Shown: in pieces, positions 10,911-35,289 of the stretch
How the letters are laid out: each line of letters opens with the position of its first letter
Numbering within the stretch: the stretch's first letter is position 1
Source: Candidatus Peribacterales bacterium
Lineage (GTDB): Bacteria; Patescibacteriota; Gracilibacteria; Peribacterales; Peribacteraceae
DNA length: 36,585 nucleotides
Direction: 5' to 3'
Assembly (NCBI GenBank): GCA_035289805.1
Contig: DATDWC010000016.1
Location: 1-36,585 of the forward strand
Position numbers and translations under genes: made by a program
Notes under the pieces: generated by a model
The model's input: only the letters and a program-made list of their open reading frames with translations
What the model was told of the DNA's origin: nothing
The model's database searches: none

Positions 10911-13073
10911 TCATTTTGCTGTTTGTAAAAATGGCGCGGTAACTTCGGATGCAACACGCATCTTCTTCACAGTTTCCAGATATTCCTCCGTGGGATTCGA
11001 GTCGAGCACAATGCCAGCTCCCGCCTGAATGAAACCCTGTTTACCCTGCCTCTGAATGGCGCGAAGTCCAACGACTGCGCCCAAGTTCCCCCGTATATCC
11101 ACAAATCCGATGGATCCCGCATAGAGGCCACGCGCCTGCTTCTCCAATGCATACGCAATTTCCACCGAACGCACTTTTGGCGCGCCGGAAACAGTTCCCA
11201 TGGGAGCCACGCACTCCAGAGCCCGGAGCGGAGAAAGCCCGTTCGTTTTACTTTGAACCTCCGATGCAAGATGCATCACGCGTCCCGCATCCAATCGGTG
11301 CATGATTCTGTCTTTCGGCAAAACAACCGATCCCGGAACCGAACTCCTTGCAAGATCGTTCCTTTCAAGATCGATGAGCATGCTGTGTTCCGCGCGCTCC
11401 TTTGGATCTTCAATCAGCCCCTGGAATGTTGCCGCGTCGGTCGTTTCATCTCCCGTGCGACTCCGTGTGCCAGCTACCGGATAAGTGGTGGCTTCGCCTT
11501 CTACGATCCTCAAAATCAATTCGGGGAAAGAACCTATGCTTTCCGCATCCCCCATTTTGATTGCATGCATATTGCCGGAGGGGCATATCCGACGGAGATT
11601 TTCGTAGAGAGGCATCATGGAGCCATTGATGTCGAATATTTTTCTTCGGGAGATCACCGTCTGGAACGTCTCGCCTGTCCGAATTTTCTCTTCACGGAGA
11701 AAACTGACTCTCCGCTCGAATTCTTCTTGCGATACTTCATCCACTTCGTTCGAAATCATTGGAGGAGTTTTATCGATCGACCGGCTCATGATCTCCTGAA
11801 ACATGTCGCTTCGATTCTGTCCGCGCGTGTAGTAGTAATATTTGTGTGTTTCATTGTCGTAGACCAGTCCGTCCTCGAAATATCCGTATGCAAAGGTCTT
11901 CTGTCCTTTTGGCGTTCGCCCCTCAGGTGGTAATGCCTTTGGCTCCTGGTACTGAATTGCTTCATATGCCATGTAGCCGACGAATCCTCCACTCAGGTGC
12001 TGTCCTTTCGGGAGGAGGCTGCTTCCCTTTTCTCCTTTTCTCATACGTTCCACCATGACGTTCAATACATCGAATGCATTGCCGCACGTTTCCAAAATAT
12101 CGATCTCCTGATCATCCAGGTAGAATGTATCGTTACAGGAGCTCAGGACAAATTTTGGATTCAAACCCATGTAGGAAAAATGATGCGATCCTTCTCCTCC
12201 GCCCGTATCAAGCGACTCAAATAAATAACAATGATCCGAGGAGGCATGGAGCCGCGCATATGCCTGTTCCGGTGACAACTCGCAGTGAAATTCTGTGAAT
12301 TCACACGCATGTTGATCAGTATCATCGATACGGTTGCGGAGAATATCAGGAAGAAGGAATTCATCGGCACGTTCTTCGTGCTTCGCAATCCCCTTTGTGA
12401 TGAGAGACTCAAAAGCTGCAGGATCCACGCGCAGGAAGTTTTCGAGAATGCGTCTTCCTTCCGGCGTTCCAAAGGATTCTGGATGGAATTGAACTCCATA
12501 GATCAATTTTTCCTTATGCTGAAGCGCCATAATCACCCCTGCGCGCGTCTGTGCGGTAATGGAGAGAGCTTCGGGAAATGACTCTGTTTCTGCTATCAGA
12601 GAGTGATATCGCATTGCTTCGAATTCTTCAGGAACGCCATCGAGAATATCGGCATGAGGTAATTTTCCTGAATGAAGGCGTGAAAGCGTGCTTGTCTTCC
12701 CATGCATGATTTCTTCCGCCTGAACGACGTTACCACCAAAGTATTTGGCAAGAGCCTGATGTCCAAGACACACGCCAAGGAGCGCTCTCCCGTTTTCAAT
12801 CGCATACTTGATCGCTGCATTCGTCACGCCGATATCTTCCGGATTATTCGGCGTTCCGGGACCAGGACTAATGATGATATGACTTGGATTCAATGCAATG
12901 ATTTCCTCCTCTGTCATTTCATCATTCCGGACAACGACAGAATCAACGCCTATTTCTGCAAGTACTTCGCGGATATTGAACGTGAACGAATCGTAATTAT
13001 CGATAATGAGTACCCGCCCGGCAGAAACGTCGGAGAGGAGAGAGGGCACCGTGGAGGAAGGTGTAGAAATCAC
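10911..13073 (-). CDS. Fused glutamine amidotransferase and chorismate-binding enzyme (PabA-PabB aminodeoxychorismate synthase or TrpG-TrpE type)
   Basis: The N-terminus is a class-I GATase (VLIIDNYDSFTFNI...LGVCLGHQAL...VQFHPES). The C-terminus is a chorismate-binding domain (YPVAGTRSRTGD...LIDLERNDLAR...GTVSGAPKVRS...RGLYAGSIGF). The start codon is GTG. Confidence 0.85.
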   Translation of the reverse strand: MISTPSSTVPSLLSDVSAGRVLIIDNYDSFTFNIREVLAEIGVDSVVVRNDEMTEEEIIALNPSHIIISPGPGTPNNPEDIGVTNAAIKYAIENGRALLGVCLGHQALAKYFGGNVVQAEEIMHGKTSTLSRLHSGKLPHADILDGVPEEFEAMRYHSLIAETESFPEALSITAQTRAGVIMALQHKEKLIYGVQFHPESFGTPEGRRILENFLRVDPAAFESLITKGIAKHEERADEFLLPDILRNRIDDTDQHACEFTEFHCELSPEQAYARLHASSDHCYLFESLDTGGGEGSHHFSYMGLNPKFVLSSCNDTFYLDDQEIDILETCGNAFDVLNVMVERMRKGEKGSSLLPKGQHLSGGFVGYMAYEAIQYQEPKALPPEGRTPKGQKTFAYGYFEDGLVYDNETHKYYYYTRGQNRSDMFQEIMSRSIDKTPPMISNEVDEVSQEEFERRVSFLREEKIRTGETFQTVISRRKIFDINGSMMPLYENLRRICPSGNMHAIKMGDAESIGSFPELILRIVEGEATTYPVAGTRSRTGDETTDAATFQGLIEDPKERAEHSMLIDLERNDLARSSVPGSVVLPKDRIMHRLDAGRVMHLASEVQSKTNGLSPLRALECVAPMGTVSGAPKVRSVEIAYALEKQARGLYAGSIGFVDIRGNLGAVVGLRAIQRQGKQGFIQAGAGIVLDSNPTEEYLETVKKMRVASEVTAPFLQTAK

Positions 13074-13268: not shown

Positions 13269-13556
13269 CTATTCAATCGTCTTTCCCATCTTTTCGAGGA
13301 AATACTCAAACCCCCCACTCCCGTACTGGAGCATCCTGGATCCACGGGTAATTTTACTGATCGAAATACCGAGCCCCTCCGCTACTTCTCTCTGCGGCCT
13401 CCCTTTTGCAAGTTCCTGAATCAGCTGCCAGCGCTCGGCGATGGAATCGAGTTCCTGGGGCGTCAGAATGTCCTTGAGAAGCATCTCTGCTTCCTTCGGG
13501 CTCCTCACTGATGCGAAGAGCTCGTACAGCTCCTGGAAACGGTACTGAGGACTCAT
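13269..13556 (-). CDS. TrpR-like protein, YerC/YecD family
   Basis: FQELYELFASVRSPKEAEMLLKDILTPQELDSIAERWQLIQEL...GISISKITRGSRMLQYGSGGFEYFL matches the YerC/YecD pattern. I placed the start at ATG 13556 (MSPQY). The ORF opens at 13628. Confidence 0.75.
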   Translation of the reverse strand: MSPQYRFQELYELFASVRSPKEAEMLLKDILTPQELDSIAERWQLIQELAKGRPQREVAEGLGISISKITRGSRMLQYGSGGFEYFLEKMGKTIE

Positions 13557-13565
13557 AGAACATAT

Positions 13566-13595
13566 ATTGTACCGGTACAGGTGGGCACCGTTCAA
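13566..13595 (-). promoter_or_regulatory. Candidate promoter TTGAAC-N18-TACAAT for the TrpR-like gene
   Basis: The -10 ends 9 nt before the ATG at 13556, which implies a near-leaderless transcript. Confidence 0.35.
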
Positions 13596-13613
13596 GATCA
13601 TTATTGCTGTGAT

Positions 13614-13710
13614 TCCCCCTTCTCCCAATCTATAAAAAAGAAGAAAGATTTTCCCACACTCAACCGTATCTTCGGATAGCGTGGGAGAAGGGGGCCAGGG
13701 GGATGAGGGA
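13614..13710 (-). repeat. REP-like element, copy A (13-nt perfect inverted repeat with a 53-nt spacer), overlapping the rpsO terminator
   Basis: The minus strand reads TCCCTCATCCCC-CTGG-CCCCCTTCTCCCAC ... TGGGAGAAGGGGGA. The CCCTCATCCC and CCCTTCTCCCAC blocks are shared with copy B. Confidence 0.5.
13635..13689 (-). terminator. Candidate rpsO terminator
   Basis: On the minus strand, TTCTCCCAC pairs with GTGGGAAAA (6 bp, one mismatch, then 2 bp) around a 23-nt loop that contains a UUCG-type mini-hairpin. TCTTTCTTCTTTTTT follows. Confidence 0.45.
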
Positions 13711-14881: not shown

Positions 14882-14968
14882 GCCGATAAAGTCTAGCGCA
14901 CCACTCGAAAGTATGCGTCTCAATTCTTTTAAAAAGCAGCATCTCGTGTGGTACGATACGAGGTCCAT

Positions 14969-16738
14969 ATGGGGAAATTGCCTTCGCTCTTCAGTCGCAT
15001 CCAGTATCTCAGTCCGGAGGAGAGCCGGAATGTGAAGGATGCCTACATTCTCGCGCAGGAGCTCTGCGAGACTTCCCATTGTCACGCTAGGGGAGTGAAC
15101 TGCGTTGCCTATGCGGAAGAAGTAGGAGAATTACTCCTCGCTCAAAAACCAGATGCACACACTCTGATTGCTTGCTTCCTCCAATGTGCACGCGAGCCGG
15201 AGATGCTGCGGAGAGTGGAGGAGCGATTCGGACATGATATCGCAGCAACCATTGCAACACACACGATGCTCGATATTGGCCACAGTGGTTATGGTGGTCA
15301 TCCTACAGGAATGCTCCGGAGAATTGTTCTCGCACTTTCTGCAGGCAATATTCGCGTGCTCTTCATCGCCCTCCATACCCGCTTAAATACTCTGCGGCAC
15401 GCAGAACGACTTCTGCCCAAGGATCAAATAGCAACTGCACGCGAGACACTCGATATCTTCGCACCGCTCTGTGCAAGACTCGGTATCTACGCACTCAAGT
15501 ACGAGCTCGAAACACTCGCATTCCGTATCCTCTATCCCGAGGAAGCCCGCACCATGGAAGAAATGATGAAAGCAATCCGCAAGCAGTACGGACCGTTCCT
15601 TACCGAGAGTAAACGGACACTCGGGGCGCTTCTCTCGGCAGAGGGAAAACAGACCATGATCCTCACGCGCGAGAAACACTCCTATAGTATCTTCCGAAAG
15701 CTCCAGAAAAAGAGCCTCACGAGTGCTCACGATCTCCACGATCTCTTCGGCATGAGGCTCTTGGTCGAAACGGAGGAGGAGTGCTACCAGGTCCTCGGCA
15801 TCATTCATCGGATGTATCGCCCTATTTCCCACCGCCTCAAAGATTACATCGCTATGCCAAAGCCAAATGGCTACCGCTCGATTCATACGACTGTCCTTGG
15901 CTTAAGCAAAGAGAATGCTGCACTTCCCGTAGAAATCCAAATTCGAACCCACGCCATGGATGAGGAAGCGGAATTCGGTATCGCCGCGCACTGGAACTAC
16001 AAAGAGAGTGGAGGGAGGCAGCCACTCATCGGTTCTACCTGGCAAGCGCAGCTTGCCACCATGCTCCATAGCGCAGAGGGCGACGAGCAGATCGATGAAG
16101 ATATTTCCGAAGTTCTCACTGATCGCATCTTTGCGATGACCCCCAAGGGAGATGTCATCGAGCTTCCGAAAGGATCGGGTCCGCTCGATTTTGCATTCCG
16201 GGTACATACGGATGTGGGCTTACGGTACCGCTATGCCAAAGTGAATGGCACCATTGCAGCCATTGATCATCCACTGGAGAACGGAGATATGGTCCAGATC
16301 ACCATGTGGAGCGAGCCCAAACCATCACCGCAGTGGATTCAGATTGTACAGACGACGGAAGCACGTCAGAAGCTCCGAGGATTCTTGCGTCGGGATGGAG
16401 AAATACTGCAGAAAGAAGTTCTCCCACTCGTACGCGCTTCGGTCTCCAAACCGCAACGGAAAGAAAAAGTGACACCGATCGCCTCCCTTCGGCCCAAGGT
16501 TCACTTGGAATCTCAGGTACCACTCCCCTATTGCTTTGCACGTTGCTGCGAACCAGATGAGCATAGTCTCCAGCGCCCACCAATTGTGGGATACATCACG
16601 CGTAATGGTGCCGTGCGCATCCACTGGAGCGGGTGTCGCATGATCATGCATGCAAATCAGGATCGCCTGATTCGCGCTTCGTGGATCATCCCTGACGAAG
16701 TTCCTCTAAGAGCTTCTCCACTTTTTTCTGGAACTTAA
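14969..16738 (+). CDS. Long RelA/SpoT homolog (RelA-like) with a degenerate HD hydrolase domain
   Basis: Synthetase core (REKHSYSIFRKL...FGMRLLV...KDYIAMPKPNGYRSIHTTV...VEIQIRTHAMDEEAEFGIAAHWNYK). TGS domain (IFAMTPKGDVIELPKGSGPLDFAFRVHTDVG). Cys-rich domain. The HD motif position reads FLQCAREP. I placed the start at ATG 14969; the ORF opens at GTG 14948. Confidence 0.85.
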   Translation: MGKLPSLFSRIQYLSPEESRNVKDAYILAQELCETSHCHARGVNCVAYAEEVGELLLAQKPDAHTLIACFLQCAREPEMLRRVEERFGHDIAATIATHTMLDIGHSGYGGHPTGMLRRIVLALSAGNIRVLFIALHTRLNTLRHAERLLPKDQIATARETLDIFAPLCARLGIYALKYELETLAFRILYPEEARTMEEMMKAIRKQYGPFLTESKRTLGALLSAEGKQTMILTREKHSYSIFRKLQKKSLTSAHDLHDLFGMRLLVETEEECYQVLGIIHRMYRPISHRLKDYIAMPKPNGYRSIHTTVLGLSKENAALPVEIQIRTHAMDEEAEFGIAAHWNYKESGGRQPLIGSTWQAQLATMLHSAEGDEQIDEDISEVLTDRIFAMTPKGDVIELPKGSGPLDFAFRVHTDVGLRYRYAKVNGTIAAIDHPLENGDMVQITMWSEPKPSPQWIQIVQTTEARQKLRGFLRRDGEILQKEVLPLVRASVSKPQRKEKVTPIASLRPKVHLESQVPLPYCFARCCEPDEHSLQRPPIVGYITRNGAVRIHWSGCRMIMHANQDRLIRASWIIPDEVPLRASPLFSGT

Positions 16739-17638: not shown

Positions 17639-18916
17639 TCAATTAAACGTCAGTGCCTCCGGGAAGAAGATGAGGAGTATGCCGAGCACCGCCATGAGCA
17701 CACCACCAAAAATGAGTGTGAATCTCCTGTATTTGGTCGTGAATCCTGTGGCATGGAGCGTACCGATCGCGATCGTGTAGATAATGAGATCATCGAACAT
17801 GTACGCAAGGATGTAGAGCAAAAGGTACCAGTAGTGCTCAGCCGAAGTGAGAGCACTCTGTGCCAGAATCGCCGAGAAGATTGCTGGGAGTCCAGCCGTG
17901 CAGACGAGCTCCACGAGGTTCACTGATGCAGCAAGAATCGCTACTCCCCCGATCATGAGCGGCCAGGAACTTGCAGAAATCGCCTTTTTCATTTTTTCGA
18001 TCGTCTTCTGGCGCTGACCCAAATTCGTCACCTTGCATTGATTGGGGTCCTTGCCGAATGCCTCATAGAGATAAAAAGACCCGCCGCCGATCGCAACGAG
18101 GCCGATGATCTTCTGAATAATCTGATTGAATCCAAGGAGGAGGAAAACGTTGAGCCATGCCGCAATAAAGAGGTAGTACATGGCTCCCGAAACAAGGAGA
18201 AATGTTCCACCAATGACAATGATCTTGGTCCAGGATCGCGTATTGATGAGGAGTGTGAGGAGACTGATTAAAACCCACATCGCACACGGATTAAACCCAT
18301 CCAGTCCGCCGAGGATGATACTGAGCGCGGGGAGCGACAAATCGCGAAGATCCGTCTTTCCGACGAACCAGAAATCGAAGATGAAACGCTTATCATCATA
18401 GTTCGCTTCGCATGGCTGTGTAGGATCGCCGCTGCAGGTGCTGGAGCTCTCTGCAATGCTCTTTGCACCCGCTCCTGCCATGAAGGCATCAAAGGTAATG
18501 CATCCGTCTTCCTTTGCAGAACAGAATTCGTAGAGCTCTCTAATACGTTCCCCCGTTGTCTCATCAGTTTCGTACCCCTGAAGGATATGCCCATCCAAAA
18601 TAATGGTTGGCACTCCCTGAGTGAGCCCCGGCATCCGAGTCTGCACCTTTGCGAAGAGCTCCTGTGTTTCCGTATTCATGACCTCGTAATAGGTGACATC
18701 CGGAGCATTCCCCTCTGCAAACCATTCATCCATAAATTTTTCGAGTGCCGCGCAGTGCGGGCATCCATCCCGCACAAAGACGTGCATCACCGTATCGTGA
18801 TCCGCAGGTCCGGAGGTATGCCCATGTGCCGCATTTTCGTGCGCGAGCGCCGTGGGGACGGCACTCAGAAAGAGCACCGCGAGTGAAGAGAGGAGCAAAA
18901 GAGTGTTTCTTTTCAT
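17639..18916 (-). CDS. Secreted thioredoxin/glutaredoxin-fold domain (CPHC) fused to a CcdA/DsbD-like membrane domain
   Basis: Signal peptide (MKRNTLLLLSSLAVLFLSAVPTALA). Redox motif (VFVRDGCPHCAALEKF). About 6 TM helices with Cys in GFNPCAMWVL and LVCTAGLP, resembling the two membrane Cys of CcdA. Confidence 0.55.
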   Translation of the reverse strand: MKRNTLLLLSSLAVLFLSAVPTALAHENAAHGHTSGPADHDTVMHVFVRDGCPHCAALEKFMDEWFAEGNAPDVTYYEVMNTETQELFAKVQTRMPGLTQGVPTIILDGHILQGYETDETTGERIRELYEFCSAKEDGCITFDAFMAGAGAKSIAESSSTCSGDPTQPCEANYDDKRFIFDFWFVGKTDLRDLSLPALSIILGGLDGFNPCAMWVLISLLTLLINTRSWTKIIVIGGTFLLVSGAMYYLFIAAWLNVFLLLGFNQIIQKIIGLVAIGGGSFYLYEAFGKDPNQCKVTNLGQRQKTIEKMKKAISASSWPLMIGGVAILAASVNLVELVCTAGLPAIFSAILAQSALTSAEHYWYLLLYILAYMFDDLIIYTIAIGTLHATGFTTKYRRFTLIFGGVLMAVLGILLIFFPEALTFN

Positions 18917-21756: not shown

Positions 21757-23283
21757 ATGACCATTCTCGCGATCACGATCATCTACACGATCGCAGGCAA
21801 ACTGGGACTACAACTCGCCCTTGTACATGCAAGTGCTACCGCCGTATGGCCCCCTGCTGGCATTGCACTCGCAACGTTTCTGATTTTTGGATACCGGATG
21901 TGGCCGGCAATTTTGCTCGGTGCGTTCCTCGTGAACATCACCACCGAAGGAACTGTTATCACTACCCTGGGGATCGCCATTGGAAATACGCTGGAGGGGC
22001 TGGTTGGTGCATACCTCGTCCAAAAATTTGCCAATGGCGCGTGCGCATTCGATCGCGTACAGGATATTTTAAAGTTTACGCTCTATGCCGCACTCTTCAG
22101 CACCATGATCAGTGCCACGATCGGAGTGCTCAGCCTTTCGCTCACAGGATTTGCCGCATGGGAAAATTTTGCGGACATTTGGATAACGTGGTGGCTGGGG
22201 GATGCAGTCGGTGACATCATCATCACTCCACTCCTCATCATCTGGTACCGCCATCCACATGTAAAATGGACTCTGCGACAGGTCGTCGAGGCTTTCTGCC
22301 TCATTGTTTCCATCCTCTCGATCGGCGGCATTATCTTCGGAGGGCTCTTCCATGGGAGCACCGTGACGTATCCGATTGAGTTCCTCTGTATCCCTCTCCT
22401 CATTTGGGCAGCATTCCGCTTTGGACAGCCAGAAGCCTCCGCAAGCATTATTCTGCTCTCGGCTGTTGCAATATGGGGAACATGGAACGGGTATGGTCCA
22501 TTCGCACATCCCTCGGAGAATATCGCTCTCCTCCTGTTACAGGTATTCATGGGGGTAACCGCCATCACCACGATGACTCTGGCAGCAGCCATCTCCACGC
22601 AGAAGGAAACAGAGGAGCAACTGAAAGCAGCACATTCGTTATTGTCGCAGAATTTCTACAAATGCGACATATCGTTCCAGAAACTGATCGATGGCGTGCA
22701 GGAGTACGCCATTTTCCTCCTGGATCCAAGTGGTAAAGTAATGAGCTGGAACAGGGGTGCAGAGAACATTAAGGGATACAAGGCATTCGAAATTGTGGGG
22801 AAAGATTTTTCTCTCTTCTATACGGAAGATGATCGCAGGCAGGGAACTCCCGCAAAATTACTCGGTCTTGCAGCACTCCAGGGACATGTGGAGCATGAGG
22901 GTTGGAGTGTCCGCAAGGATGGCTCGCGTTTCTGGGCAGATAGCATCATCTCGGCACTGCGAAGTGCCTCGGGAGAGTTAACAGGATTTTCCAATGTCAC
23001 CCGCGATATGACCGATCGGCATCAGGCAGAACTCGCCCGATTTGCATTCGTGGGGGCAGCCTCGCATGAGTTACGGACGCCACTCTCTGCCATTCGGTGG
23101 AACCTGGAGATTTTGAATGAGGACAAGAATCTCTCACTAGAGCAGAAGGCAAAGCTCACAAGCGATACCCTCAGTGAGAGCCAAAAAATGTCCGAGATAA
23201 TAGAAAGCCTCCTGACCTTGATCTCCCGAAGGGAGCCCAGCATTTCTCCTGGCTTAAGTTCCGATGCTCCTCTCACTGTCTAA
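21757..23283 (+). CDS. MASE1-PAS-HisKA sensor protein lacking a HATPase_c domain
   Basis: About 8 TM helices in the N-terminal 290 aa. PAS domain (YAIFLLDPSGKVMSWNRGAENIKGYKAFEIVGKDFS...FSNVTRDMTDR). H-box (FVGAASHELRTPLSAI). The ORF stops about 70 aa after the phospho-His. Confidence 0.75.
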   Translation: MTILAITIIYTIAGKLGLQLALVHASATAVWPPAGIALATFLIFGYRMWPAILLGAFLVNITTEGTVITTLGIAIGNTLEGLVGAYLVQKFANGACAFDRVQDILKFTLYAALFSTMISATIGVLSLSLTGFAAWENFADIWITWWLGDAVGDIIITPLLIIWYRHPHVKWTLRQVVEAFCLIVSILSIGGIIFGGLFHGSTVTYPIEFLCIPLLIWAAFRFGQPEASASIILLSAVAIWGTWNGYGPFAHPSENIALLLLQVFMGVTAITTMTLAAAISTQKETEEQLKAAHSLLSQNFYKCDISFQKLIDGVQEYAIFLLDPSGKVMSWNRGAENIKGYKAFEIVGKDFSLFYTEDDRRQGTPAKLLGLAALQGHVEHEGWSVRKDGSRFWADSIISALRSASGELTGFSNVTRDMTDRHQAELARFAFVGAASHELRTPLSAIRWNLEILNEDKNLSLEQKAKLTSDTLSESQKMSEIIESLLTLISRREPSISPGLSSDAPLTV

Positions 23284-23293
23284 GTGAGGGTGA

Positions 23294-24703
23294 TCATGAG
23301 TGTAGGTTCGCTGTGAGAAATGATCGCAGTAACTTTTTGGTGGAGGAGTGGCGACAGAGCATGAGCCATTCTTTCTTTGCCAGAGGCTTCCTCCCGAACA
23401 CCGGCTCAATGATATCACCATCACGAAGCGATGTATCGAGCCCTACTTTTCTGCCATTCACTTTTACGTTCTGGAGTAATTGGAATCGCCGAGGGAATGC
23501 ATGGCAGATAAAATCGAGCACTTCGGCAGGTTTACGGAGATGGTGCAGATTATTCTCATGATCGAAGATCGCAAGGTGATCCTCGGAGAAGTACTTTCGA
23601 AGTGCTGCGGAAAATTGCTTGGGGGATCGCACCTCCGCACGCAGACTCTGCAGATTACGGAAGAGGTTCACACGGGAGTTCCCATGCCGTAGCGCATACT
23701 TAGCCGCCTTGTAATCGCCGTGCGCAGAAGCCCCGTATTCGCAGATTTTGTGCATCTCCTCTGTGCGAATCTGAATTTCGATCGGTTGCTCGGTGACTCC
23801 CGGTAGTGGAAAAACCACCGTGTGAATGGATCGGTAGCCATTTTCCTTGGGTGCACCAATGTAATCCTTCAGCTTCCCCGGCATTGGGTGCATGGCACCG
23901 TGCACTACACCGAGTGCCTGGTAACACGCGGTGACATCAGGAACCACAATGCGGATCGCAAGTCGATCTGTGAGATCTTCGAACTTTCGACGTTTGAGCG
24001 CCATCTTGCGAAAGGTTGAGTAGATTCCCTTCACGCGCTGATTGAGCGAGCAGGAGACCCCCTCTTTATGGAAGGCTTTCTGCAGGAAGGCAATCGTCTG
24101 CGTCAGGCATGCGTTATCGAGTACCTTGGCTTCCTCAAACCGGCGACGCAGTTCCCGTGTCAACTTGGGCTGCAACACAGCAAAGCATGCATCCTCCATA
24201 TCGTATCGCCATGCATGCATCCCGAGCCTCCCCGCGATTGCGGTGTACATGTGGAGTGTTTCGTGCGCGATGCGCTGCTGTAACTCTTTGGGGAAGCGCG
24301 CGAGATTACGAACATCATTCACACGGTGGGCCATGCGGAGTGGGAGTAGGCGCTCATCCTCTACGAATGCCTCGAGTGCGGTATCCAGATCCTGTGTTTT
24401 TGCATCAATATTGAGGCGTCGCAGTGCGTGCATGCGCTCCACAAGTTCACGCTCCTCCGTGGTGAGCGGTGATTGCTCTAAGAGCTCCCACCCATCGGGA
24501 TGTACCGGGAGATCGTGGAGATGTGCAACAGCCAAAAGCGATGCATCGTTGAGACATTCACGGAGTACCTCTGCAACTTCGCGTCCATGGGACGCATAAT
24601 TTTCTCCTGTCCGGCGGCGGAGGAGAGAGAGGTGCGTGCGTGCATAGGTTGCTGCTTTCTGCGGCAGGGTTTGATCGTTGCGAGCTGCTCTCTTTGCGAT
24701 CAT
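23294..24703 (-). CDS. Second RelA/SpoT homolog (HD, synthetase and TGS domains; 469 aa)
   Basis: HD region (SHGREVAEVL...LLAVAHLHDLP). Synthetase core (RVKGIYSTFRKM...LAIRIVV...KDYIGAPKENGYRSIHTVV...IEIQIRTEEMH). TGS-like C-terminus (VKVNGRKVGLDTSLRDGDIIE). Confidence 0.85.
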   Translation of the reverse strand: MIAKRAARNDQTLPQKAATYARTHLSLLRRRTGENYASHGREVAEVLRECLNDASLLAVAHLHDLPVHPDGWELLEQSPLTTEERELVERMHALRRLNIDAKTQDLDTALEAFVEDERLLPLRMAHRVNDVRNLARFPKELQQRIAHETLHMYTAIAGRLGMHAWRYDMEDACFAVLQPKLTRELRRRFEEAKVLDNACLTQTIAFLQKAFHKEGVSCSLNQRVKGIYSTFRKMALKRRKFEDLTDRLAIRIVVPDVTACYQALGVVHGAMHPMPGKLKDYIGAPKENGYRSIHTVVFPLPGVTEQPIEIQIRTEEMHKICEYGASAHGDYKAAKYALRHGNSRVNLFRNLQSLRAEVRSPKQFSAALRKYFSEDHLAIFDHENNLHHLRKPAEVLDFICHAFPRRFQLLQNVKVNGRKVGLDTSLRDGDIIEPVFGRKPLAKKEWLMLCRHSSTKKLLRSFLTANLHS

Positions 24704-26574: not shown

Positions 26575-27531
26575 TCACCTCAAGCCGACGGCCTTACGCA
26601 CGCGCTCCATTGTGCGTGAGGCGATGGACCGTGCTCTCTTTGAGCCCTCGATGATCACGGCCTCCACTTCGCTATCCTTGAGCTTTACCCTGCGCTCGCG
26701 CATAGGCCCAAAATAATCCATGAATGCCTCAAAGAGCATCTTCTTCGCATCGCCGTACCCTAAACCTCCTTCCTGATATTTTTTTGCGAGTTCTTTTTTT
26801 TCTCGATCATCGAGGAGGAGCGAATGAATCTGATAGATAATGGATTCTTTTGGATCCTTTGATTCCTCTACTCCCTTGGAATCCGTGACGATTCCCATGA
26901 TGGCCTTCTTCACTACCTTTTCGTCTGCGAAGAGCGGAATGGCATTCCCATAACTCTTACTCATCTTCTTGCCATCGATCCCAGGAACAATTGCAGCTTC
27001 GGCGAGTTTCGCTTCGGGAGCAACAAGCAGATCCTTCCCGTAACGATTGTTGAATTTTATTGCGATGTCTCGGGCAATTTCGACGTGCTGTTTTTGATCT
27101 TTCCCCACAGGAACAGTATCCGCATCGTAGAGAAGAATATCTGCGGCCTGAAGCACTGGATACGTGAAGAGCCCCACATTCGCTTCGAGTCCCTGCGCTA
27201 CCTTATCTTTGTAGCTCACTGCCCGTTCAATCAGACCCATGGGAGTCACACACCCAAGAATCCATGAGAGTTCGGTATGTTCGGGAACGTAGGATTGAAA
27301 AAATAACGTTCCCCTCTGTGGATCAAATCCACAGGCAAGGAAATCTTTGGAGAGCTCCTGACGGTACGTCAGTAGTTCCACAGGATCATGAACAGTCGTG
27401 AGCGCATGGAGATCAACAATCATGAGGAGATTCTCCTCAGCACCGAGGAGTTCCATATTCTGCTTAAAGTACCCAAAGTAGTTTCCAAGATGCGGAGCGC
27501 CAGAAGGCTGAATACCGGTGAGGATGCGCAT
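26575..27531 (-). CDS. trpS: Tryptophan--tRNA ligase
   Basis: The class-I HIGH-type motif in GIQPSGAPHLGNYFG, the KMSKS motif, and a 318-aa length are typical of TrpRS. Confidence 0.93.
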   Translation of the reverse strand: MRILTGIQPSGAPHLGNYFGYFKQNMELLGAEENLLMIVDLHALTTVHDPVELLTYRQELSKDFLACGFDPQRGTLFFQSYVPEHTELSWILGCVTPMGLIERAVSYKDKVAQGLEANVGLFTYPVLQAADILLYDADTVPVGKDQKQHVEIARDIAIKFNNRYGKDLLVAPEAKLAEAAIVPGIDGKKMSKSYGNAIPLFADEKVVKKAIMGIVTDSKGVEESKDPKESIIYQIHSLLLDDREKKELAKKYQEGGLGYGDAKKMLFEAFMDYFGPMRERRVKLKDSEVEAVIIEGSKRARSIASRTMERVRKAVGLR

Positions 27532-33468: not shown

Positions 33469-34566
33469 TCAGAAATGCCTTTTCGAGAGTATCTGATCAT
33501 ATTTATCCGCCATTTCTTGAATAATGGTTTCCATATCTTCAAAGGGGGAACAAGGATCAGTAATAGATTTGCCGAGTTCATAATCCATGCCCGTTTCTAT
33601 TTTTCGCGATCCACCAACAATAAACATTTCTCCCATAAATCCTTTCACAAGATCATGGCCTTCGCGCTGCTCAAGCATATTTTGAAGCACGTGACGAATG
33701 ACGAGTAATTGTCGAGATGGATCCTTCTTCTTCCCATTATCAAAATCTCTACAGTTATCATGACTTGCATCAACCATAATGCTTGGATTTTCAATGACAT
33801 AATCATAGTTATCTTGACCAGTCATCATCCTCGCAGCAGTTTTGATCGATTCTGCATCATAGTTTGGCTTGTCGGGGCTTCCCCGTAGGATGAGGTGCCC
33901 ATGTGAGTTGCCATGGGTCTCCGCCCACTGCCCATCAAGAAAAATATCTTGTGGAGTTTGTACGGCTTCTACTCCATTCACTCCAACTTCGATAGATCCA
34001 TAGGTATCATGTTTTACACCAAAAGGTATTCCACGGGTTCTTGAAGCCATACCTCTGTGCTCCGAGTCTGTCGTACTACGGGCACCCATCCAGAGGTAAC
34101 TAATGTATGGATCGAAAGTTCTTCCATTATGTGTAAAGAGCATTTCATCACCACTTGCAATTCTATCGGAAAGATTTTTCATCATTGCTGCACAGAGTTC
34201 CGTCCCCAAGATGAGATCGGGTGGCTTGAGTGGATCTGGTTGTTTCATCGGTCCTTCCCAATCTTTTTTTCGCAAGCGGGTGCGTGGCTTTTGAATAACC
34301 GTCCGAATAATAATTTTTACTCTCTCATTTACACGCTCTTGTAACCTTGCTGCCTTATCCGCAAAATGCGGCATTGCAGCAAACGGCCAAGCTGAACAAG
34401 GACCAAACAAAGCAAGAAGGCGATGATCTATTCCTTCGATAATTGCCCTCGTCTCCTTCCTATCCTGCGCAATCTTGGAAATATTCGCAGGATACTTTGC
34501 TGCAATTTCCTCGGCAGTGGGGAGTACGCCTTTTATATCTTCGCCGGGACTGTGAATGGTAGTCAT
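33469..34566 (-). CDS. aroG: 3-deoxy-7-phosphoheptulonate (DAHP) synthase, class I (AroF/G/H type)
   Basis: GPCS (metal Cys), KPRT, GARSTTDSEHRGMAS, GVKHDTYG, HLILRGS..PNY, VDASHDN, GEMFIVGG and SITDPC follow the order of the class I-alpha DAHP synthase motifs. Confidence 0.82.
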   Translation of the reverse strand: MTTIHSPGEDIKGVLPTAEEIAAKYPANISKIAQDRKETRAIIEGIDHRLLALFGPCSAWPFAAMPHFADKAARLQERVNERVKIIIRTVIQKPRTRLRKKDWEGPMKQPDPLKPPDLILGTELCAAMMKNLSDRIASGDEMLFTHNGRTFDPYISYLWMGARSTTDSEHRGMASRTRGIPFGVKHDTYGSIEVGVNGVEAVQTPQDIFLDGQWAETHGNSHGHLILRGSPDKPNYDAESIKTAARMMTGQDNYDYVIENPSIMVDASHDNCRDFDNGKKKDPSRQLLVIRHVLQNMLEQREGHDLVKGFMGEMFIVGGSRKIETGMDYELGKSITDPCSPFEDMETIIQEMADKYDQILSKRHF

Positions 34567-34583: not shown

Positions 34584-34617
34584 TAAAAAATAAACCCTTG
34601 TCCGCTTGGGGAAGGGT
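34584..34617 (-). terminator. Attenuator terminator in the DAHP synthase leader
   Basis: The minus strand reads ACCCTT-CCCCAAGCGGAC-AAGGGT followed by TTATTTTTT, ending 17 nt before the aroG-like ATG. Its 5' arm overlaps the 3' arm of the 56-nt hairpin at 34608-34663. Confidence 0.5.
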
Positions 34618-34638
34618 GCTTGTGGTGTGCGAGATGTC

Positions 34639-34713
34639 TTACAGACGCACGGCACCGTTCCCCGCGCTAAAGGCGAAGAACCAGTAACCGTAACTAAAAG
34701 TCTGCGTGGACAT
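34639..34713 (-). CDS. Aromatic-rich leader peptide (24 aa): MSTQTFSYGYWFFAFSAGNGAVRL
   Basis: ATG at 34713 and TAA at 34639-34641, minus strand. It has 4 Phe, 2 Tyr and 1 Trp within residues 6-15. It sits between a near-consensus promoter and the terminator hairpin. Confidence 0.55.
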   Translation of the reverse strand: MSTQTFSYGYWFFAFSAGNGAVRL

Positions 34714-34721
34714 GCGCGCGT

Positions 34722-34749
34722 ATTGTACTCATCAAGCGGTACATGTCAA
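34722..34749 (-). promoter_or_regulatory. Promoter TTGACA-N16-TACAAT for the leader peptide and DAHP synthase transcript
   Basis: -35 at 34744-34749 and -10 at 34722-34727 on the minus strand. The -10 ends 8 nt before the leader ATG. Confidence 0.5.
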
Positions 34750-34758
34750 ATAGGTCTC

Positions 34759-35289
34759 ATGGGAAATATCGTTTCTATCAGGCAAGCTATGACTATAGAT
34801 ATGGAACCCAAAATCAGACTATCGGCAGATTCATTTGAAGCATTGAAACAGGACGGCAGTCTGCGATGGGAGGTTCAGAGTGCGAATTGGCAGTACATGC
34901 GGTCAGTGCTAGACACTGAGGATACACTGCAGAAAACAGACCAGAATTTACACGATTTGCTTTTGGATATTGGACAGACGGTTGTCGATGACGATTCACC
35001 AGACCCAATGGATGTGACGAAAGCACAAGAATTGCAAAATAAATTTCAAAGATTGGAACTACAGTGTAATCAGATCACAGACCAGATGCGTGCTGCCATG
35101 CGGGAAAAGCTAACCAGTATGTTACCACTGGGATGTGTGGAAAGAATTTCAGAAGATCAACTTGAAACGTTCTTTGATGAGCTTGAAAATGCAACACACG
35201 TACAAATGAGAATCGGTCGAATGTTGGACAGTGGCCTAAAGCAGATAAAAGCAAGATCGGAAGATAGCGATGATTCAGCAAGACAGTAA
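34759..35289 (+). CDS. Hypothetical acidic helical protein (176 aa)
   Basis: I chose ATG 34759 (MGNIVSIRQ). The TTG-initiated extension from 34606 would run antisense through the aro leader. I recognised no family. The local sequence is AT-richer. Confidence 0.45.
   Translation: MGNIVSIRQAMTIDMEPKIRLSADSFEALKQDGSLRWEVQSANWQYMRSVLDTEDTLQKTDQNLHDLLLDIGQTVVDDDSPDPMDVTKAQELQNKFQRLELQCNQITDQMRAAMREKLTSMLPLGCVERISEDQLETFFDELENATHVQMRIGRMLDSGLKQIKARSEDSDDSARQ

Follow-up and report, generated by a model that had tools for sequence, protein, structure and literature searches.

What is a 24-codon open reading frame (ORF) crowded with phenylalanine, tyrosine and tryptophan codons doing between a near-consensus promoter and the gene for 3-deoxy-7-phosphoheptulonate (DAHP) synthase? 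The question was raised by a 36,585-nt stretch of DNA from a Candidatus Peribacterales bacterium (contig DATDWC010000016.1), hereafter called the window, to which all coordinates below refer; both the leader and the DAHP synthase gene lie on its minus strand. The host belongs to the Candidate Phyla Radiation (CPR, or Patescibacteria), uncultured bacteria with small genomes, commonly portrayed as unable to carry out most amino-acid biosynthesis, and to our knowledge almost nothing has been learned about their gene regulation. An original prediction, made from the letters of the window, had proposed ribosome-mediated attenuation at this site. The analysis reported here makes it very probable that the element is a leader-peptide transcription attenuator, which would respond to the supply of aromatic aminoacyl-tRNAs. 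The evidence comes from the anatomy of the leader, from the mutually exclusive hairpins that it can form, and from the recurrence of both in 26 further leaders.

A promoter scan found a −35 hexamer TTGACA (34749-34744) and a −10 hexamer TACAAT (34727-34722) separated by a 16-nt spacer. Together they match 11 of 12 consensus positions, and this is the sole such site on that strand in the 2 kb scanned. Eight nucleotides (ACGCGCGC) separate the −10 box from the leader ATG at 34713, and the ORF of 24 codons that begins there ends with a TAA stop at 34641-34639 (34713-34639 in all) and reads as the peptide MSTQTFSYGYWFFAFSAGNGAVRL. Its codons 6-15 (34669..34698) specify F S Y G Y W F F A F, a run with seven aromatic codons among ten (F6, Y8, Y10, W11, F12, F13 and F15), which was taken to be the regulatory segment. 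The promoter, its 8-nt distance from the ORF and the aromatic run were all found as originally predicted.

Downstream of the aromatic run, folding confirmed the two overlapping hairpins of that prediction, a 56-nt hairpin at 34608-34663 and ACCCTT-N12-AAGGGT, and computing the minimum free energies of the two alternative folds, a check proposed at the time, gave −25.8 and −9.3 kcal/mol, respectively. The former, named the antiterminator, has as its 5′ arm GGGGAAcGGUGC (region 2, 34663-34652), which also codes for Gly18-Ala21 (G-N-G-A), starting from the last base of the Ala17 codon. Its 3′ arm GCACCcUUCCCC (region 3, 34619-34608) overlaps the 5′ arm of the second hairpin, the terminator (34594..34617), in which ACCCUU (34617-34612) pairs with AAGGGU (34599-34594) around a 12-nt loop with two inner pairs. 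Since nucleotides of GCACCcUUCCCC are common to both hairpins, terminator and antiterminator are mutually exclusive. A U tract, UUAUUUUUU (34593-34585), follows and ends 18 nt before the DAHP synthase ATG at 34566, one more than the 17 nt first given. The description with two hairpins was incomplete, as a third hairpin of −27.3 kcal/mol had been overlooked. In this 1:2 (anti-antiterminator) hairpin, found in the minimum free energy folds, region 1 (34673..34705) forms the 5′ arm, and its core UUCUUCGC (34680-34673), located in the aromatic codons, pairs with GCGGGGAA (34665-34658), the start of the antiterminator 5′ arm. The 1:2, 2:3 and 3:4 hairpins are all present, and the leader thus has the full layout of classical attenuators. 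Compared with dinucleotide shuffles, the leader fold had a z-score of −2.6 and the antiterminator one of −4.3, which none of 200 shuffles equaled.

To follow how a translating ribosome would redistribute these pairings, we masked the nucleotides that it would occupy and refolded the remainder. With the A site at codons 6-12 of the window leader, the full antiterminator was the best fold; at codon 13, the antiterminator persisted minus its outermost pair; and from codon 14 on, the terminator was the best fold, which sets the simulated switch point right where the aromatic run ends. The same simulated switch was observed in 24 of 24 relatives, where, with the ribosome on the aromatic codons, the best fold in every case paired the terminator 5′ arm with sequence just past the aromatic run. 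The part of the original model in which a stalled ribosome frees the antiterminator was thus sustained by both the simulation and its conservation.

The sequences show the elements themselves, that the hairpins exclude one another, and that the whole is conserved and covaries; where transcription begins, that the ORF is translated, that ribosomes stall on it and that transcripts terminate is inferred. On this basis we propose the following mechanism. Transcription would start at the leader AUG, or no more than about 2 nt from it, and the peptide would be translated from a leaderless mRNA. When Phe-, Tyr- or Trp-tRNA is scarce, the ribosome would stall within codons 6-13 and hold region 1, leaving region 2 (GGGGAAcGGUGC) free to pair with region 3 (GCACCcUUCCCC); this 2:3 pairing would hide the terminator 5′ arm and let RNA polymerase read through into the DAHP synthase gene. 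When the tRNAs are charged, the ribosome would cross region 2 and reach the UAA inside the antiterminator loop, and region 2 would then either be covered by the ribosome while region 3 emerges or be recaptured by region 1 behind it, so that region 3:4 pairing would halt transcription on the U tract, which ends 18 nt short of the gene. Were the leader not translated at all, the 1:2 and 3:4 hairpins would form and transcription would likewise terminate. DAHP synthase expression would accordingly be set by charged aromatic tRNAs, mainly those for Phe and Tyr, and for Trp through a single codon.

Is the arrangement a peculiarity of one contig? A search for small aromatic-rich ORFs, and one with a covariance model, was extended to another 160 DAHP synthase loci of genomic or metagenomic origin (the contigs compared here are labeled L001 and so on). 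The nearest homologue of the window DAHP synthase, P0002 (51% identity), is encoded in syntenic order (rsmA <-> DAHP synthase <- pcrA) in L011, where the gene is preceded by the promoter TTGACA-N16-TAAAGT and, after 7 nt, by a GTG-initiated leader with the peptide MSQHTFFFGAYYFSFTGGRRCV, the antiterminator GGGGAAGGCG/CGCCUUCCCC, and the terminator CCUUCC-N9-GGAAGG followed by the U7 tract UUCUUUUUUU. Promoter, peptide and both helices are thus kept between the two loci, with changed stem sequences. Besides this ortholog, about 25 further loci carried the aromatic small ORF with compensatorily changed stems that the original prediction had suggested looking for in related genomes. In all, 27 distinct leaders were obtained, the window's and 26 others, which have in common the promoter, a Phe/Tyr(/Trp)-rich ORF, and the overlapping antiterminator and terminator. 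Their source contigs are mostly labeled Peribacteria, Peregrinibacteria or Gracilibacteria, and several are metagenome contigs without a taxon label.

The peptides of this family, such as MVSRSYAFGFWFFAFMAGKGRA, MSLQTFFYGFYFYPYIAGKRSYSLR, MKSFSFDFFYFWFRASEQV and MKQFFFYFFGFYFAPQRVRVRVKK, contain 5-9 aromatic codons each; Phe and Tyr occur in all 27 and one Trp in 16, and the family motif reads xxQTFxYGxWxFxFSxG. Over residues 4-17, the aromatic share in the 27 leaders was 45% in the leader frame vs 6% and 14% in the other two frames. The leader frame was open in 27 of 27 leaders, and the other two held 24 and 22 stops. In addition, ORFs with at least 6 aromatic residues in 10 were found in 8 of 78 sense-strand regions upstream of related DAHP synthase genes, compared with 1 of 390 shuffles.

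These frame-specific features bear on the possibility that the leader is an attenuator or riboswitch read by a protein (in the manner of TRAP or PyrR), by uncharged tRNA as in a T-box, or by a metabolite, with the small ORF being incidental. Alternative hairpins by themselves are silent on what selects between them, a Trp_repressor-family protein encoded in the window tells that this genome does have protein regulators of aromatic metabolism, and the sequence conservation of region 2 (GGGGAAGG) would befit a binding site for a ligand or a protein. On the other side, a single frame is kept open throughout the family, and its aromatic density persists in leaders whose RNA sequence is unrelated (L078, L093, L139 and L168); the distance from the −10 box to the start codon is fixed, no T-box or other Rfam family matches, and region 2 has reason enough to be conserved, as it serves at once in coding, in the 1:2 hairpin and in the 2:3 hairpin. 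We therefore consider a sensor other than the ribosome very improbable.

The structural logic of the proposed attenuator recurred as well, terminator and antiterminator excluding each other in every member. A hairpin adjoins a T run in all 24 leaders analyzed, with differing stem sequences; the T run is evident in 23 of the 24 and only weak in L058. In each of these 24 leaders the antiterminator had a z-score between −2.6 and −6.3 (median −3.9), and when the intervening sequence was shuffled with its dinucleotides preserved, an equally good antiterminator arose in only 6 of 4800 cases. In ribosome-free folds, region 2 paired with upstream sequence, mostly the aromatic codons, in 22 of 24 leaders. 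The conserved nucleotide motif of region 2 is TTTAnnnnGGGGAAGG, and the conserved core of the family is GGGGAAGG/CCUUCCCC. Distant members have quite other terminator stems, namely CUCUCC/GGAGAG, CGCCCUC/GAGGGCG, GCCGGC/GCCGGU, GAACCUCG/CGAGGUUC and CUCUCAC/GUGAGAG, each with a matching antiterminator, and unrelated stems were likewise found in L139 (GCCGAGG/CCUCGGC) and L078 (UCGGUUUAUUC/GAAUAAGCCGG).

Would a functional hydrophobic micro-protein, or a role of the small ORF in translation or mRNA-stability control, with the hairpin as a leaky terminator or stabilizer that senses nothing, account for the same data? The peptide motif is recognizable, the terminator is weak, and trans-acting leader peptides such as peTrpL are known. 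The element is nevertheless tied specifically to aromatic biosynthesis genes (two DAHP synthase clades, a prephenate dehydratase and a chorismate mutase). The seemingly conserved C-terminal residues coincide with an RNA arm, GGGGAAGG coding for G-K or G-N; what unites the distant members is confined to aromatic content and RNA logic and does not extend to the peptide sequence; and antiterminator and terminator overlap far above chance. As to translational control, a U tract 18 nt upstream of the gene and a start codon outside all hairpins favor termination over masking of a ribosome-binding site. This explanation was judged quite improbable, and attenuation by a translating ribosome is retained as the preferred reading.

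Covariation was measured on an alignment of 20 leaders fitted with a covariance model, in which pairing holds for 74% of cells and 8 of the 11 pairs vary on both sides. The covariation score was 0.174 against a shuffled mean of 0.106, with none of 500 shuffles reaching 0.174 and slid controls at or below 0.116; this alignment had been fitted to the tested structure and is hence biased towards it, and its inner helix (columns 19-23 with 77-81) is still poorly aligned. The wholly different stems of the distant members are more telling than the score. A MAFFT alignment of 20 leaders had left region 3 out of register, and RNAalifold, run on the terminator segments of 22 leaders, returned no consensus pairs, as their stems are offset in register from one another; on account of these shortcomings, per-sequence folding with shuffles and the model-fitted alignment were used.

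The bias of the fitted alignment and the missing RNAalifold consensus are two of several points that weigh against attenuation. The terminator hairpin is weak and atypical, with 6 bp, a 12-nt loop and about −9 kcal/mol, and is missed by a standard terminator scan because its loop exceeds the 8-nt limit of the scan. The aromatic leader with terminator was not found in 29 other CPR DAHP synthase loci, from Kaiserbacteria, Uhrbacteria, Magasanikbacteria, Saccharibacteria and other Peribacteria, including about half of those in Peribacteria, Peregrinibacteria and Gracilibacteria. For a leader starting exactly at the AUG, the global optimum (−41.4 kcal/mol) already contains the antiterminator; as the latter is also far stabler than the terminator, the switch must be kinetic and co-transcriptional, as in classical systems. 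Moreover, the stop codon (nt 73-75 of the leader) lies 11 nt downstream of region 2 (nt 51-62), and a ribosome at the UAA would cover only the 3′ part of region 2, in which respect the original model, with its ribosome covering the arm from the stop codon, holds only in part. The block of the antiterminator would consequently be a matter of timing or of renewed 1:2 pairing once the ribosome has passed, and the latter probably completes it. Finally, leaderless initiation of the ORF, plausible as it is, was deduced from promoter position only.

The promoter from which that deduction was made is itself conserved. Of the 26 related leaders, 22 retained TTGAC[ATGC], the spacer measuring 16-18 nt, and a −35/−10 pair matching at least 10 of 12 consensus positions preceded the start codon in 22 of 26; the spacers of L162 and L010 differ from that of the window at about five positions, with both hexamers intact. 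In 26 leaders, the start codon followed the −10 box by 7-12 nt without any purine-rich motif. This distance leaves no room for a Shine-Dalgarno sequence and points to a leaderless or near-leaderless transcript. Shine-Dalgarno motifs were also rare in the window at large, being found in 3 of 26 start contexts of long ORFs, and a −10 box lies 7-10 nt before the ATG of two or more long genes as well, among them PcrA (31148) and 17639-18916. These start contexts suggest an unusual or leaderless translation initiation in the lineage. Many starts in the window follow pyrimidine-rich tracts, for example TCCTTC or CTCCTCTC, and the start context of the DAHP synthase gene, TTTCCTTCAATACTCC-ATG, is pyrimidine-rich too.

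DAHP synthase was not the only type of gene found behind the leader, which precedes two DAHP synthase paralogue clades, a prephenate dehydratase (PF00800 + ACT; L025, 411-538 and 558-1442) and an operon of a type II chorismate mutase (PF01817) and DAHP synthase (L078, 944-1331). Tandem leaders were observed in L025, L133 (216-341), L074 (1012-1098) and L155. Some leaders are separated from the DAHP synthase gene by ORFs of about 100-118 aa without a Pfam match. The promoter-leader-terminator modules of L146 (980-1185) and L162 (986-1190) show about 90% nucleotide identity to that of the window, and the DAHP synthases behind them, which belong to the main Peribacteria clade, are 41-44% identical to the window's; the leaders of L011 and L103 are similarly alike. 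It would thus seem that every lineage has a pair of DAHP synthase paralogues that stand behind one lineage-specific leader. In L010 (500-715), an L162-type promoter is joined to a window-type leader and gene, and this locus would have arisen either by recombination, as in gene conversion, or through chimeric assembly over the leader that both types share.

The near-identity of these modules also bears on an annotation conflict. On L001-L005, gene callers extend an opposite-strand ORF (34606-35289, plus strand, TTG start, 227 aa) across the leader, which would then be the N-terminal coding part of that ORF, with the small ORF and the hairpins as chance features; the opposite strand is indeed stop-free across the leader in 4 of 12 related loci. 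In the other 8 of the 12, however, it is closed, and in L146 and L162 the about 90% identical leader recurs with unrelated sequence upstream of the −35 box, for which reasons the 227-aa ORF was rejected as a real feature. Other contigs of the same sequence are called at 162 aa from an ATG at 34801, and the extension has no Pfam match. A coding origin of the leader is thus extremely improbable. The true start of the opposite-strand gene is likely the ATG at 34801 or 34789, the extension being an annotation artefact that hides the attenuator.

Taken jointly, these loci can be read as a modular cassette that forms an aromatic regulon, with a leaderless sensor, concerted evolution and possible re-programming to other amino acids, a combination that we put forward tentatively, as somewhat less probable than not. 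The cassette may extend over Peribacteria, Peregrinibacteria and Gracilibacteria and, besides two DAHP synthase paralogues, take in prephenate dehydratase, chorismate mutase and uncharacterized small ORFs. It seems to evolve in concert within a lineage, given copies about 90% identical before paralogues only 41-44% identical. If this reading is true, the leaderless sensor implies transcription-translation coupling with 70S-type initiation in CPR bacteria. As for re-programming, weak scaffold matches downstream of DAHP synthase were recorded at L028:2966-3110 and L026:3030-3154 (18.7 and 15.2 bits), with differing small ORFs, the Leu-rich MYRMDVLLGQLLSLLLTAEGELRV and MFLQATLPVPFTPPRAGRCLAA, each ahead of an unknown ORF. 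Perhaps the scaffold was adapted there to other amino acids, as the Leu-rich L028 variant would indicate; the matches may also be due to chance. Within the window, the covariance model (R1) found only the minus-strand copy of the leader (88.7 bits), its plus-strand match being the mirror image of that copy. No leader was seen before the gene for a fused glutamine amidotransferase (GATase)/chorismate-binding enzyme (10911-13073) or before the Trp/Tyr-type tRNA synthetase gene (26575-27531), where a Trp_repressor-family gene and rplL occupy the searched sites instead.

How far is this family new? The original prediction knew of no leader with all three aromatic residues in front of a first common-pathway enzyme, and its claim of novelty proved overstated, since two published elements precede DAHP synthase genes. 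In Corynebacterium glutamicum, the aroR leader (Phe-Tyr-Phe) precedes aroF, which encodes DAHP synthase (Mentz et al., 2013, PMC4046766), and experiments are reported in which it enhances transcription under Phe limitation (Neshat et al., 2014, via PMC11802643). In Acholeplasma, uORFC-13-1, an upstream ORF with Phe codons beside a terminator, was described by Brewer et al. (2021, PMC8632094) as exclusive to the region ahead of aroF. For Escherichia coli aroF, attenuation was hypothesized in 1980 according to later citing papers. The comparison of aroR and uORFC-13-1 with the window family was made by their published descriptions only.

Like the window leader, aroR is a short aromatic-codon ORF directly upstream of DAHP synthase, and it acts via ribosome stalling; it has a single Phe-Tyr-Phe and no Trp, unlike the window family with its 5-9 aromatic codons and often one Trp, and belongs to Actinomycetota, whereas the window family belongs to CPR/Patescibacteria. 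uORFC-13-1, which occurs in Acholeplasma and unassigned environmental sequences, resembles the family as a computationally found upstream ORF with Phe codons, a promoter, an adjacent intrinsic terminator and a proposed attenuation. It differs in having a ribosome-binding site and a U run that codes for at least one Phe, while the window family has no room for such a site, mixes Phe, Tyr and Trp codons, and possesses the conserved GGGGAAGG/CCUUCCCC core; Rfam 15 produced no match to a uORFC-13-1 model either. With the enterobacterial pheA (pheL) and trp (trpL) leaders, the window leader shares the four-region logic, the codons in region 1 and the U tract after the 3:4 hairpin. Unlike pheL and trpL, it has its stop codon inside the antiterminator loop downstream of region 2, is probably leaderless, and is predicted to sense several amino acids and to control a common-pathway rather than a branch enzyme; no Rfam sequence or structure of theirs matches it. 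Leaderless regulatory polycysteine ORFs have been documented in mycobacteria (bioRxiv 10.1101/834739), and they likewise stand at the transcript 5′ end, without a Shine-Dalgarno sequence and with a codon run matching the pathway product. They differ in amino acid, phylum and sequence family, and the leaderless status on the window side derives from promoter geometry only.

Rfam searches of the window region with E up to 10 gave no relevant match (Phe_leader, Trp_leader, His_leader, Leu_leader, Thr_leader or T-box), and Rfam 15 at gathering thresholds gave none in 16 related loci. A literature search for leader peptides and attenuators in CPR/Patescibacteria found no earlier description, and Naville & Gautheret (2010) make no mention of aro genes. 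We conclude that this is a new sequence family within a known kind of element, DAHP synthase leader peptides being known elsewhere; what sets it apart is the mixing of Phe, Tyr and Trp codons in one run, a start that is probably leaderless, its occurrence in CPR bacteria and its spread over several genes. Research on attenuation gains from it a multi-aromatic leader before a common-pathway enzyme, and no new principle. An attenuator here implies that these lineages make chorismate-derived compounds and adjust the entry enzyme to Phe, Tyr and Trp tRNA charging, and that their ribosomes and RNA polymerase are likely coupled, probably starting on leaderless mRNAs. The family also offers a testable cis-regulatory part, and an annotation marker because gene callers run the 227-aa ORF across the leader. 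What looks like an aromatic leader unrelated to the window family, and has no Rfam match, was noticed in Legionella tucsonensis and Legionella sp. (L057:1692-1860 and L079:1684-1860). There, some 200 nt before a DAHP synthase gene, an ORF of 35-37 codons (...ACFFYFSFFSP...) leads into a CCCCCAG/CUGGGGG hairpin with a T run after it.

The gene behind the window leader (33469..34566, 365 aa) is monocistronic and convergent with pcrA. Its product matches TIGR00034 (aroFGH) with 176.3 bits (cutoff 173.2) and also PF00793, and by these matches is a somewhat divergent type I-alpha DAHP synthase. The exact protein was found on 15 aquifer-metagenome contigs, including ANAN16 Rifle assemblies, and the closest homologues are annotated as Candidatus Peribacteria or Peregrinibacteria; among species-representative genomes, the best identity was only 45%, so that the reference set does not include the organism. 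That the organism does use chorismate follows from the fused GATase/anthranilate-synthase-like chorismate-binding enzyme (720 aa, minus strand) encoded in the window. The Trp_repressor-family (PF01371) gene lies directly upstream of it (13269-13628, minus strand), and the two may give this genome another level of aromatic regulation, one that works through a protein. Elsewhere in the window, two RelA/SpoT-family proteins are encoded within 10 kb (14948-16738, plus strand, and 23294-24703, minus strand), both with HD and RelA_SpoT domains and one with TGS, and a MASE1-PAS histidine kinase is encoded at 21757-23283, altogether a notable investment in stringent-response signaling for a CPR genome.

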